A stretch of DNA of 62,142 bases, the filler included. It is 7 parts of 7 records of this genome, joined end to end, with 100 filler letters (N's around TTAATTAATTAA, not from the genome) between each part and the next. Parts side by side here need not be neighbours in the genome. Positions count along the whole stretch, not along the records: positions 1 to 10,565 come from SRR20825010_5219; 6 more parts are not named here. One strand, written 5' to 3'. Both the position numbers and the translations under genes were made by a program. Positions 7,023-19,186 of this stretch are shown piece after piece (within the stretch, counting starts at the first letter, position 1; every line of letters starts with the position of its first letter). Below the pieces are notes generated by a model, which was not told the origin of the DNA, did not search any database, and was given only the letters and a program-made list of their open reading frames with translations.

Positions 7023-8816
7023 ATGGATATGCAAAAAATAAGGAATTTCTGTATCATCGCCCATATTGATCATGGGAAGAGTACACTGGCGGATAGATTA
7101 CTACAGCAAACTGATACTGTCGCAGATCGCGATATGCAGGCTCAGTTGTTGGATAATATGGATTTGGAGCGTGAGCGTGGTATCACGATCAAATCTCATG
7201 CGATCCAGATGAAATATACTCACGAAGGTGAGGAATATACCCTCAATCTGATTGATACCCCAGGTCACGTGGATTTTTCATACGAGGTTTCCCGGTCGAT
7301 TGCCGCCTGTGAAGGCGCTTTGCTGATCGTGGATGCATCTCAGGGTGTAGAAGCGCAGACTATTTCCAATTTATACTTGGCACTTGGCCACGATCTGGAA
7401 ATTATTCCAGTTTTGAATAAAATTGACCTTCCTGGAGCCGATCCAGAAGCAGTTGCCGATGAGGTGATTGATCTGATCGGTTGCGATAGAGAAGATATTA
7501 TTTTGGCCTCCGGCAAAACAGGAATCGGTATTGATGATATCCTGAAAGCGGTGATCAATAGAATCCCAGCTCCTAAAGGAGATCCGGATGCACCGCTTCA
7601 AGCGATGATTTTTGATTCGGTTTATAATCCATTCCGTGGAGTTGAGGTTATTTTTAGGATTTTCAACGGAACGTTCAGTAAAGGTGACAAGATCAAATTT
7701 GTCAACACTGGAAAAGAATACGAGGCGGATGAAATCGGAATTTTGGGCTTGAACCAAATTCCTCAGCAAACCATGAGCGCCGGTAACGTAGGTTACCTGA
7801 TCTCTGGGGTGAAAGTCGCCAAGGAAATCAAAGTGGGTGATACGATCACGCACATCAAGAGACCTTGTGATAAAGCAATTCAGGGTTTTGAAAACGTAAA
7901 GCCAATGGTTTTTGCGGGTATTTATCCTGTAGAAACTACGGACTATGAGGAACTTCGTTATTCTATGGAGAAACTCCAATTGAACGATGCTTCGCTAGTT
8001 TGGGAACCTGAAACTTCCATGGCTTTGGGCTTTGGATTCCGTTGCGGATTCTTGGGAATGCTTCACATGGAGATTATCCAGGAGCGTTTAGAGCGTGAAT
8101 TTGACATGACTGTGATCACTACAGTTCCGTCAGTTCAGTTCAAAGCTTTGATGACCAACGATACCTATCAGATTATCAATGCGCCATCCGATATGCCAGA
8201 TCCTACGCGGATGAAGCACATCGAGGAGCCCTATGTGAAAGCTTCTATTATCACTGCCTCAGAATATGTGGGTGCGGTAATTACGCTTTGTATGGACAAA
8301 CGTGGTCAGATCAAAAACCAGGTTTACCTGACTGCAGAACGAGTTGAATTGACTTTCGACATGCCTTTGGCTGAGATTGTTTTTGACTTCTTTGATAAGC
8401 TGAAAACCATTTCCAGAGGCTATGCTTCTTTGGATTATGAATTGAAAGGATACGAAATCTCGCACATGGTGAGACTGGATGTGATGCTAAACGGAGAGCC
8501 AGTTGATGCGCTTTCTGCTGTAGTTCACAGAGATAAAGCTTATGATTGGGGCAGAAGACTTTGCGAGAAACTGAAGGAATTGGTTCCACGTCAAATGTTT
8601 GAAATTGCTATCCAGGCAGCTATTGGGCAGAAAATTATCGCTAGAGAAACAGTTAAAGCAATGCGTAAAAACGTGTTAGCGAAGTGTTATGGTGGTGATA
8701 TTTCCCGTAAGCGTAAACTCCTAGAAAAGCAGAAAAAAGGCAAGAAACGTATGAGACAAGTCGGAAACGTCGAGGTTCCTCAGGAGGCGTTTATGGCAGT
8801 GCTCAAACTTGATTAA
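7023..8816 (+). CDS. lepA: elongation factor 4 (LepA)
   Basis: [33 protein letters not shown]-terminal [18 protein letters not shown]. Confidence 0.98.
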
Positions 8817-8830
8817 TTCGTATTCCTTAA

Positions 8831-8871
8831 ACTTCGACATTCAACATTCGACGTTCTTCATTTATCATTTA
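8831..8871 (-). repeat. 41-bp heptamer-built repeat unit A (left terminal inverted repeat)
   Basis: ACTTCGA CATTCAA CATTCGA CGTTCTT CATTTAT CATTTA; 36/41 identical to the reverse complement of 9452-9492. Confidence 0.85.
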
Positions 8872-8902
8872 AGGGCTATCGTTGGGGAATAGGGGGTCCA
8901 TA

Positions 8903-8943
8903 ACTTCAATATTCATCATTCAACATTGCAGATCCATCATTAA
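8903..8943 (-). repeat. 41-bp heptamer-built repeat unit B
   Basis: ACTTCAA TATTCAT CATTCAA CATTGCA GATCCAT CATTAA; same orientation and phase as unit A. Confidence 0.75.
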
Positions 8944-8947
8944 AAAA

Positions 8948-8988
8948 TTAATATCGAATGAAGAATGCTGAAGTCCGAATGATGAAGT
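8948..8988 (+). repeat. 41-bp heptamer-built repeat unit C
   Basis: TTAATA TCGAATG AAGAATG CTGAAGT CCGAATG ATGAAGT; inverted relative to A/B. Confidence 0.85.
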
Positions 8989-9021
8989 GAGCGTCAATAG
9001 GAACTTAAAACTTTGCAAGTT

Positions 9022-9062
9022 TTAATATCGAATGTAGAATGATGAATTTCAAATAATGAAGT
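9022..9062 (+). repeat. 41-bp heptamer-built repeat unit D
   Basis: TTAATA TCGAATG TAGAATG ATGAATT TCAAATA ATGAAGT; 35/41 identical to unit C. Confidence 0.85.
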
Positions 9063-9091
9063 AATAGAATTCAACACTATATCTGAGTACC

Positions 9092-9454
9092 ATGGAGAGA
9101 AAGTATGATCTAGAGGCACGGTTAATCGAATTCGCTGCAGCTATTATTTCTTTTACGGATTCCATGGTAAGTTCTAAGGCCGGAAACCATATGGCAAATC
9201 AGCTTCTCAGAAGCGGAACTTCACCAGCTTTGAATTATGGCGAAGCGCAGTCTGGAGAATCTCGAAGGGATTTTATTCATAAGATGAAAATTGTCTTGAA
9301 AGAATTGCGGGAAAGTGGAGTAGCCATCAAGATTATTGAAAAAGCTAAACTTCATCTTGATAGGGAGGCAATAGTAAGTCTACAAAATGAATGCAACCAG
9401 TTGATTTCAATCTTTGTCAAAAGTGTTGGTACAGCTGAACGAAATAGTAATTGA
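9092..9454 (+). CDS. four-helix-bundle protein (23S rRNA-intervening-sequence protein / TIGR02436-like)
   Basis: QLLRSGTSPALNYGEAQSGESRRDFIHKMKIVLKELRE signature; 120 aa. Confidence 0.92.
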   Translation: MERKYDLEARLIEFAAAIISFTDSMVSSKAGNHMANQLLRSGTSPALNYGEAQSGESRRDFIHKMKIVLKELRESGVAIKIIEKAKLHLDREAIVSLQNECNQLISIFVKSVGTAERNSN

Positions 9455-9492
9455 ATAATAAATGAAGAACTTCGAATGATGAATTTCGAAGT
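9452..9492 (+). repeat. 41-bp heptamer-built repeat unit E (right terminal inverted repeat)
   Basis: TGAATA ATAAATG AAGAACT TCGAATG ATGAATT TCGAAGT; begins with the TGA stop codon of the four-helix-bundle gene. Confidence 0.85.
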
Positions 9493-9514
9493 TTGATACC
9501 GTAAATAACAAAAC

Positions 9515-10399
9515 ATGGCAATTCTCATCGACGGAAAACTCACCTCATCGCAAATCAAATCTGAAATCGCTATTCGCGTAGCGGAAATAAAAGCTGAGGG
9601 AGGCAAAACTCCTCATTTGGCAGCTATTCTCGTGGGAAGTGATGGCGCAAGCCAAACCTATGTAAATGCAAAGGTGAAGGCATGTGGAGAATGTGGTTTT
9701 GAATCTACTTTGGTGAGACTGGAAGACGATGTCTCTGAAGAAGAATTGTTGAAAGTAGTCGCTGAAATCAATGAGAATCCGGATATAGATGGATTGATCG
9801 TACAACTTCCTTTGCCTAAGCATATCTCTGTGGAGAAAGTAACCGATAAGATCAAGCCTGAGAAGGACGTGGATGGATTCACTCCAGCTAACGTGGGTCG
9901 CATGGCTCTGAACTGGCCAGCGTACGTGGCAGCTACTCCTTACGGGATTATAGAATTGCTGAAGAGATATGATATCCAGACCTCAGGCAAGCATTGCGTG
10001 GTGATCGGTAGATCTCATATCGTGGGAAGTCCGATGAGTATCCTGATGGCTAGAAATGGCTATCCAGGAAATGCAACTGTGACATTGACACATAGCCGAA
10101 CTGCTAATCTTCCGGAAATCGCCAAAACTGCTGATATTCTGATCGTAGCTTTGGGCAAACCACATTTTGTAACAGCCGATATGGTGAAGCCAGGCGCTGT
10201 GGTAATCGATGTGGGTATTCATAGAATCGAAGACGCTAGTAAGAAATCAGGATTCAAGTTGGTAGGAGATGTGAAGTTTGACGAGGTATCTGAAATCGCT
10301 TCTGCAATCACGCCAGTACCGGGTGGAGTAGGACCGATGACGATTGCTTCTTTGCTCTATAACACGCTGTTATCCGCAGAAAAGAAAGTTTACGGGTAA
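9515..10399 (+). CDS. folD: bifunctional methylenetetrahydrofolate dehydrogenase/cyclohydrolase
   Basis: [37 protein letters not shown]. Confidence 0.97.
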
Positions 10400-19085: not shown

Positions 19086-19185
19086 NNNNNNNNNNNNNNN
19101 NNNNNNNNNNNNNNNNNNNNNNNNNNNNNTTAATTAATTAANNNNNNNNNNNNNNNNNNNNNNNNNNNNNNNNNNNNNNNNNNNN
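19086..19185. other. artificial contig spacer
   Basis: N44-TTAATTAATTAA-N44. Confidence 0.98.
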
Positions 19186-19186
19186 G

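Follow-up and report, generated by a model that had tools for sequence, protein, structure and literature searches.

A four-helix-bundle gene enclosed by inverted heptamer arrays in the lepA-folD spacer of Algoriphagus

What is a gene of the '23S rRNA intervening sequence protein' family doing between two protein-coding host genes, and what are the inverted arrays of seven-nucleotide units that enclose it? The question is raised by the spacer between lepA and folD on an Algoriphagus contig, which forms the first 19 kb of a 62-kb stretch of DNA (62,142 nucleotides (nt), here called the window); the LepA protein encoded there is 98% identical to that of A. locisalis DSM 23445 and 97% identical to that of A. 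resistens. Intervening sequences (IVSs) of rRNA genes that carry an open reading frame (ORF) have been known since the 1990s, with the ORF unexplained, and the family to which the ORF belongs, TIGR02436, is related to Avd, the accessory protein of diversity-generating retroelements (DGRs). A first-pass annotation of the window described a segment bounded by inverted repeats that starts 14 nt after the lepA stop codon and ends 22 nt before the folD ATG, and a segment so placed is indeed found. We conclude that the feature is real and non-trivial, a variant of the IVS elements. The reading we favour, to which we give about half of our belief, is that of an IVS-type selfish cassette that lies in an operon spacer and would be transcribed with the host operon.

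Anatomy of the cassette and its protein

The lepA-folD spacer is 698 nt long, with a G+C content of 30–35% compared with 41–45% in the surrounding sequence. It holds a single real gene (Table 1), the second ORF between the arms being a 41-aa antisense frame, so that the earlier description of a 120-aa four-helix-bundle protein, with its stop codon in the right repeat, as the only gene inside is borne out. The outermost arms, A and E, are inverted with respect to each other over 51 nt with 84% complementarity in a repeat search, and a local alignment of 8829–8869 with 9454–9494 makes 37 of 41 positions complementary. The first-pass annotation had recognised these two repeats; they are present, but the arrays of ATTCGAN-like heptamers in the spacer number five and not two, A and B being of the left type and C, D and E of the right type. 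Arms B and C form a nested unit that is the equivalent of gene-less hairpins dispersed in related genomes, arm D forms inverted repeats with A and B (I3 and I5), and the TGA codon of the gene (9452–9454) falls within arm E. A 13-nt arm motif, allowing up to two mismatches, is found eight times in the whole window against an expectation of 3.1 ± 1.4, and seven of these eight matches fall in 8840–9483. As had been stated at first pass, the ends of the segment (8817–8830 against 9495–9514) show no target duplication on inspection by eye, and the cassette encodes no transposase, integrase or reverse transcriptase. Scanning the region for sigma-70-type promoters and terminators gave only weak consensus matches, the one terminator-like match being the palindrome within arm E on the minus strand.

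The 120-aa protein is a member of the TIGR02436/PF05635 family, since it passes the curated cut-offs of both hidden Markov models (TIGR02436: E 7.6e-21, 74.4 bits, cut-off 24; PF05635: E 1.2e-10, 41.9 bits, cut-off 33.8). It also matches the protein of known structure 2RLD in sequence (E 1.1e-12). An AlphaFold model of the protein, with a predicted local distance difference test score (pLDDT) of 92.6, contains helices at residues 7–23, 29–54, 58–84 and 91–117, and Foldseek comparisons give template-modelling (TM) scores of 0.81–0.90 with 2RLD, 0.82 with 2GSC and 0.76 with Avd (4DWL). The predicted fold is an up-down four-helix bundle like those of 2RLD and 2GSC. The 2RLD entry comprises five chains, and the family member XCC0516 is described as a homopentamer in the available text of PMC4990558. 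Six residues, Q37, R40, S44, N48, E51 and E74 in the window numbering, are invariant in an alignment of 23 family members that are otherwise only 14–23% identical to the window protein; the first five lie 3–4 residues apart on one face of helix 2, a polar arrangement that would suit the binding of a ligand or of nucleic acid. No known catalytic motif is present in the protein, profile searches matched no nuclease family, and PADLOC returned no match.

Folded as RNA, the region reaches −181.8 kcal/mol (z −4.1), and none of 20 shuffled sequences is as good. Arms A and E are paired in both the minimum free energy (MFE) and the centroid structure, and B is paired with D in the MFE structure of the full region. 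The predicted structure is thus that of terminal inverted repeats forming a stem around an insert, as in an IVS. The first-pass suggestion that A and E pair on the transcript and loop out the insert is consistent with this pairing, and agrees also with the excision of ORF-bearing 23S rRNA IVSs by RNase III described in PMC4990558; an excess of G:U pairs in the arms is absent, and is considered with the mechanism below.

Table 1. Features of the lepA-folD region (positions along the window)
Feature	Position	Strand	Remarks
lepA (elongation factor 4), upstream host gene	7023..8816	+	597-aa ORF; Pfam GTP_EFTU and LepA_C
Arm A, left-type array (ACTTCGA CATTCAA CATTCGA CGTTCTT CATTTAT ...)	8829..8879	+	Outer partner of E
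Arms B (left, 8901–8951) and C (right, 8941–8991), nested unit	8901..8991	+	Direct-repeat families D1 and D2
Arm D, right-type array upstream of gene	9015..9065	+	D1 copy at 9022–9062, 85% to C
Four-helix-bundle gene (TIGR02436/PF05635, '23S rRNA intervening sequence protein')	9092..9454	+	120 aa, intact
Arm E, right-type array	9444..9494	+	From the gene's stop codon to 20 nt before folD
Single CGTAAAT unit before folD	9500..9506	+	Compared by eye with L107, L109 and L116
folD, downstream host gene	9515..10399	+	294-aa ORF; Pfam THF_DHG_CYH and THF_DHG_CYH_C

The window itself is an assembly of separate contigs, as indicated by a run of N at 19087–19186 that has a six-frame stop linker, TTAATTAATTAA, in its middle. 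The G+C content is 39–46% before this junction and 48–61% after it, and the later contigs may belong to another organism (mis-binned). The end of the first contig falls within an apparent tRNA gene.

Inverted arrays around genes of the TIGR02436 family

A sample of 201 Bacteroidota genomes gave about 1,000 matches to the TIGR02436 family, spread over 161 of the genomes. Every match in two related genomes is flanked by inverted arrays of short tandem units, and the unit differs from gene to gene (GACCGAA, GTATCAA, ATTTGAG, GTTATTN, GGAGGTN and others). The best family locus in each of 30 genomes shows the same pattern. These loci were pooled with the window into a set of 43, after four of the 16 loci from the two related genomes had been left out (a duplicate, two fragments and a copy truncated at its 5' end); the 43 are partly non-independent, because some of them are orthologues.

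Complementarity between the two flanks of a gene was scored by local alignment, and 1,740 pairings of flanks from different, non-orthologous genes served as controls. The median score is 29 for a gene's own flanks and 17 for mismatched partners (Mann-Whitney p = 7e-22), and the own partner is the best one at 26 of 43 loci. The possibility raised at first pass, that genes of this family share heptamer-built flanks, is supported by own-flank scores above the 95th percentile at 33 of the 43 loci and above the 99th at 25. The arms in the window score 62, the highest value of the 43, compared with a maximum of 40 among the mismatched pairs. Local alignment replaced RNA duplex energy as the measure; the energies, which are implausibly large for such long inputs, gave no separation (medians of −68.6 kcal/mol for own and −60.2 kcal/mol for mismatched flanks, with the own partner best at 8 of 43).

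The arms also share a common layout. A period of 7 is the best lag in 26 of the 43 upstream and 25 of the 43 downstream flanks, and a period of 8 in 8 and 10 respectively, whereas only 2 of 82 nearby control stretches have 7 as the best period. Where the arms are clear, the right arm begins 0–12 nt from where the stop codon starts at 20 of 29 loci, the distance from the end of the left arm to the start codon has a median of 32 nt, and the median arm length is 30 nt. At 34 of 43 loci the gene and both of its neighbours point the same way, the median gaps being 61 and 45.5 nt. One of the 43 leaders contains the Bacteroidota −7 promoter motif, compared with 3.3 expected.

The same design is found outside the phylum. 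By eye, inverted 7-mer arms are present at five of six plasmid loci, four of these five being cyanobacterial (two of them in cas operons) and the fifth an Azospirillum locus in a 23S rRNA gene, while at one Nostoc locus the arrays are in direct orientation. Taken over all these loci, inverted and lineage-specific arms of 7-mers, or sometimes 8-mers, appear to be general to the family.

Three of the plasmid loci deserve separate description. On a Pseudanabaena plasmid (L189), an armed four-helix-bundle cassette lies within a CRISPR-cas operon, between cas6 and cas4; its arrays are very long, (AAAAGCT)x14 upstream and (AAAAGCC)x9 downstream of the gene, and their order is left-right-gene-right as in the window. 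A second armed cassette within a CRISPR-cas operon (L193) lies between cas10 and cmr3 on a Picosynechococcus plasmid. On plasmid AZO_p2 of Azospirillum lipoferum 4B (L192, 13992–15136), an unannotated family gene with arms of inverted GGACAGA/GGACGGA units interrupts a plasmid-borne 23S rRNA gene. We conclude that this last locus is a true rRNA IVS of the same armed design.

Turnover at the lepA-folD site

Among the best 80 LepA loci of the genome collection, a gene of this family occupies the lepA-folD site in only two, and the spacers in other Cytophagales and in Sphingobacteriales are mostly short. At the same site in Marivirga lumbricoides (L012) there is a one-directional array of about 105 nt of TACTTAA-like units, with neither a gene nor an inverted partner.

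The situation in Algoriphagus is different. Thirty lepA-folD junctions were read in a sample of the genus, 28 of them with folD in reach. Ten of the 28 hold type 1, the type of the window, with proteins 79–96% identical and ATTCGAN arms; nine hold type 2, with a protein of about 32% identity and GATTTAC/GTAAATC arms; and four hold type 2b, with AATACGA arms. The remaining five are gene-less and comprise two spacers of 35–37 nt, two 131-nt type-1 hairpins and one type-2 shell with no ORF, so that a search for empty sites in relatives, as proposed at first pass, has an affirmative answer. The gene is broken at 6 of the 23 occupied junctions. Orthologous arms differ by indels of whole units and by shifts of register, unit numbers vary, and arrays of differing types are stacked in several genomes. 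In the locus closest to the window by its flanking genes (L107), a solo array homologous to arm A stands in the same place and is followed by a complete type-2 cassette. The single CGTAAAT unit that precedes folD in the window would seem, from its sequence, to resemble the type-2 right arm and the short 'empty' spacers.

A wider survey took in 81 genomes of the genus, 77 of them with a LepA match, the coordinates being compared by hand. A type-1 gene or remnant is present in 30 genomes, in 29 of them within 1 kb of lepA and in one at a contig end, and 30 further genomes have a family member of 30–38% identity beside lepA. In all, 59 of the 77 genomes have a family gene or remnant at lepA-folD, of at least three divergent types. 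Another type-1 cassette, together with FolD and an Algoriphagus-like LepA (89%), is found in a metagenome-assembled genome labelled 'uncultured Limnohabitans sp.' (L003/L096), an organism name that looks wrong for the contig.

The types are scattered over the tree of their flanks. On a tree built from 2.2 kb of lepA and folD sequence, with 29 tips, cassette type requires 13 changes, compared with a mean of 15.6 after shuffling and a value as low in 6 of 200 shuffles. Three fully supported sister pairs, the window and L107 among them, differ in cassette type, and the 100 nt of coding sequence on each side do not co-vary with it (p = 0.29). The cassette genes of L097 and L117 are 98.9% identical, whereas their flanks are 82.5% identical, and the nearly identical tract opens within the left array, some 58 nt past the lepA stop codon, and closes at the start of folD. 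Public contigs add to this picture. A marine population carries the whole arrangement of the window at 98% identity; in an isolate with 4 differences in 503 nt of lepA, 657 other letters replace 8803–9552; and in one metagenome contig exactly 72 nt, those between A and B, are missing (8836→8909). Occupied, empty and decayed alleles, together with horizontal spread at a single site, are thus found here as they are for homing elements. We conclude that the lepA-folD spacer of Algoriphagus is a hotspot of cassette swap, loss and replacement, and that one cassette was recently shared between diverged species. The first-pass idea of a minimal selfish unit of protein plus cognate repeats is well supported by these alleles, by the lineage-specific arms and by the sharing of a cassette between species.

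The intact genes are under strong purifying selection. The median ratio of non-synonymous to synonymous substitution rates (dN/dS) is 0.08 for intact type-1 orthologues (15 pairs) and 0.05 for type-2 genes (6 pairs).

Mechanism and relation to known elements

The closest known relatives of the cassette are the ORF-bearing 23S rRNA IVSs of Coxiella burnetii and Leptospira, which likewise hold a PF05635/TIGR02436 ORF within the terminal inverted repeats of a long stem. The available text of PMC4990558 describes a Coxiella IVS with an S23p ORF, a 28-bp stem of terminal inverted repeats within which RNase III cleaves, and tandem GACAGAT heptamers of variable copy number beside the ORF, the element being regarded there as selfish. 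These parts are also present in the spacer cassette, and it is for this reason that we read it as a selfish cassette of IVS type. It differs from the rRNA IVSs in lying between the protein genes lepA and folD and not in rRNA helix 25 or 45, in having five arrays that include a nested gene-less hairpin, and in that several types replace each other at one site. The condition of the gene differs also, the Coxiella ORF being reported as decaying and not expressed, in the part of PMC4990558 available, whereas the cassette gene is under strong purifying selection.

On this reading the unit would consist of a left 7-nt array, a short leader, the 120-aa gene and a reverse-complement right array that begins at the stop codon. 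It lacks a usual promoter and would be carried on the lepA-folD transcript, a ride that agrees with three observations: right arms begin at the stop codon, a promoter motif is wanting in the leaders, and the gene runs in the same direction as its neighbours. The arrays would pair in the transcript to give a stem of 30–50 bp enclosing leader and ORF. By analogy with the ORF-bearing 23S rRNA IVS stems, this stem would be a substrate for RNase III, and a cut there would set the cassette RNA free and split the host messages from one another. Purifying selection suggests that the protein is made and matters, and we would guess that it binds the repeat arrays. On the DNA side, whole cassettes pass between related species at this one site, and the exchanges break within the arrays and where the genes end; cassettes also decay, are lost and are replaced, while gene-less copies of the arms persist as small intergenic hairpins.

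Such hairpins are abundant. The stretch 8900–8990 of the window matches other intergenic sites in all five related genomes searched, and type-1 arms match at 7, 9, 10, 15 and 21 places in five close genomes, each of which has at most one type-1 gene; five more distant genomes have 0 to 4 matches. Many of the matches lie in short spacers flanked by genes of the same orientation and are compact hairpins of 85–90 nt whose ends, ACTTC...GAAGT, do not vary. When two hairpin spacers were each traced through five further genomes, the type-1 hairpin was found in some species, and a hairpin of a different 7-mer or an unrelated palindrome in others. Other palindromic repeats in these orthologous spacers (L198, L199, L203 and L204) include GTCACTGCGAGCG...CGCTCGCAATGAC and CAGTCTGAGCGAAGTCGAAGAC, and several families of hairpin elements seem to coexist in the spacers of these Algoriphagus genomes.

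Several points weigh against a purely transcript-borne cassette. The anatomy, its generality, turnover, transfer and the selection on the protein are observed, whereas co-transcription, a stem in the cell, its cleavage, the ends of the cassette RNA and an activity of the protein are all inferred. In the available text of PMC4990558 the excised Coxiella IVS RNA is short-lived and S23p is apparently not made, in contrast to the strong constraint on the gene here. The B|C hairpin alone is no more stable than its shuffled counterparts (z −1.2). Mismatches between arms show no bias towards G:U pairs on the sense strand (36 wobble-type mismatches of the sense strand against 32 of the antisense strand, with 101 transversions; p = 0.72), from which it follows that the complementarity of the arms need not be kept by RNA pairing; the arms may instead act at the DNA level. 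Finally, exchange as a block, the gene-less hairpins dispersed at 7–21 places per genome and the changing orthologous spacers argue for an additional, perhaps primary, process acting on DNA.

The main rival, a serious possibility even if we think it on balance unlikely, is accordingly a mobile element acting at the DNA level, in which the arrays would be multi-site terminal inverted repeats or hairpin ends of single-stranded DNA. The gene cassette would be its full-length form and the hairpins of about 85–90 nt its derivatives, akin to miniature inverted-repeat transposable elements (MITEs) or to repetitive extragenic palindromic (REP) sequences, with movement driven either by the binding of the protein to the 7-mers of its own arms or by an enzyme of the host such as a Y1 transposase, of the type found in IS200 and among REP-associated tyrosine transposases (RAYTs). 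Such an element would account for the compactness and constant ends of the hairpins, for the excess of arm sites over type-1 genes, for the replacement of one palindrome by another in orthologous spacers, for the movement of the cassette as a block between species, and for arm mismatches that lack an RNA-type bias. A possible driver is at hand, since Y1_Tnp matches occur in all five genomes searched (13, 6, 2, 5 and 6 per genome), most of them open frames of about 150 aa, and their counts rank roughly like those of type-1 arms; with n = 5 this likeness is only a lead and not evidence. Against this rival, the cassette holds no transposase, integrase or reverse transcriptase, its protein carries no known catalytic motif, and inspection by eye shows no target duplication either at its own ends or at those of the hairpins. 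The feature therefore shares with MITEs the terminal inverted repeats and dispersed copies, but not a target duplication or a transposase. Two further observations tell against this rival: two close genomes with no type-1 gene still keep 7 and 15 arm matches, and the arms differ between cassette lineages, so that one enzyme cannot read them all. Type-1 genes, moreover, are never found away from lepA-folD (29 of 30 carriers have them there, the other being at a contig end), although this fidelity fits exchange by homologous recombination as well as it fits transposition.

A bolder form of the DNA-level view, which we regard as unlikely, would make the protein the specificity factor of an undescribed class of mobile element. 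An oligomer would read the 7-nt units of its own arms through the conserved polar face of helix 2 (Q37, R40, S44, N48 and E51) and so promote the swapping of cassettes or their entry into transcribed spacers and rRNA helices. The hairpins that lack a gene would then be non-autonomous derivatives of this element, and the intergenic heptamer repeats known from Bacteroidota and Cyanobacteria would be their footprints.

It is rather improbable that the locus is instead useful to the host, with its alleles, acting in RNA-level control of the operon or in defence or immunity, held under balancing selection and its arms serving as regulatory or recombination signals. Strong purifying selection on the intact genes would be expected of such a locus, as would a family gene or remnant at the site in 59 of 77 genomes and divergent types scattered over the tree, which is the pattern of diversifying or balancing selection; the family genes in the CRISPR-cas operons of two cyanobacterial plasmids point the same way. 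Against usefulness stand the 6 of 23 genes that are broken and the 5 of 28 junctions that have no gene, with lepA and folD visibly unaffected. PADLOC finds no match, the 100-nt flanks show no hitch-hiking with type (p = 0.29), and the insertion sites of the family have in common only that they are spacers between co-directional genes.

The view that there is no unit at all, the arrays being slippage-made intergenic simple repeats of 7 nt in an incidentally inverted layout, is disfavoured and very improbable: slippage is shown by the perfect (ATCGAAT)x6 right arm of L003/L096, unit numbers vary between orthologues, and the available text of PMC4679880 describes intergenic heptamers in Bacteroidetes, Cyanobacteria and Beggiatoaceae with no link to this gene, but a gene's own flanks are complementary far beyond mismatched partners, arm type follows gene type across the junction alleles, arms and gene move together, the stop codon marks where right arms start, and the same design recurs in other phyla and in an rRNA IVS.

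Two further ideas were considered and set aside. Arms copied from the target at insertion are rejected, as type-1 and type-2 arms differ at one and the same site, as arms move together with their gene, and as type-1 arms are also present at other places. Retro-mobility driven by a reverse transcriptase, as for Avd, is not supported: RVT_1 was found in two of five related carrier genomes searched and not in the other three.

Comparison with other systems places the cassette between several of them. Avd (4DWL, 8UBB) is a pentamer that binds nucleic acid and reverse transcriptase, and the cassette protein shares its four-helix-bundle fold, with a query-normalised TM score of 0.76 to 4DWL_C; the identity, however, is 9% and the Foldseek E value 0.097, and unlike the DGRs the cassette gene has no reverse transcriptase beside it, its neighbours being LepA and FolD; nor is a template or variable repeat seen there, although no search aimed at such pairs was made. 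REP sequences and bacterial interspersed mosaic elements (BIMEs) with their RAYTs, and MITEs, resemble the feature in that small intergenic palindromes outnumber the gene-bearing form, orthologous spacers differ and Y1 genes are present. They differ from it in that the arms here are lineage-specific arrays of 7-nt units, the cargo gene is not a transposase and no target duplication is seen. It resembles homing endonuclease genes in that alleles at one fixed site may be intact, broken or empty, that copies pass from one species to another and that the intact ones are under purifying selection, but it has no nuclease fold or motif and no intron or intein context.

Cyanobacterial short tandemly repeated repetitive (STRR) sequences are further intergenic simple-sequence repeats built of heptamers. 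Others are the intergenic TAACTGA heptamers of Beggiatoaceae, Cyanobacteria and Bacteroidetes, which the available text of PMC4679880 presents as direct repeats with a suggested role in translation. Like the arrays described here they are tandem 7-nt units in short spacers near start or stop codons, in the same phyla, whereas here the arrays form inverted pairs on the two sides of genes of a single family; S23, IVS, intervening sequence and four-helix are terms that do not occur in PMC4679880. In the literature covered, which stops short of subscription journals and supplements, the family is linked to flanking heptamer arrays only in the Coxiella IVS, and we found no paper on such cassettes in protein-coding operons; what there is otherwise consists of work on rRNA IVSs, the family name in genome lists and the TAACTGA heptamer study (PMC4679880, as far as its available text goes). 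New here are the single-site hotspot with three cassette types, the transfer between species with a break point in an array, the strict site fidelity of type 1, the family of gene-less hairpins, the estimates of selection and the negative G:U test.

These results suggest that three puzzles, the ORFs of rRNA IVSs, the common TIGR02436 family and the intergenic heptamers of Bacteroidota and Cyanobacteria, may be one. The lepA-folD site of Algoriphagus is a natural experiment, in which three cassette types, empty sites, hairpins, broken copies and a recent transfer are brought together in one genus. Some of the carriers are cultured type strains, so that the role of the protein, and whether the arms act in RNA or in DNA, are directly testable.

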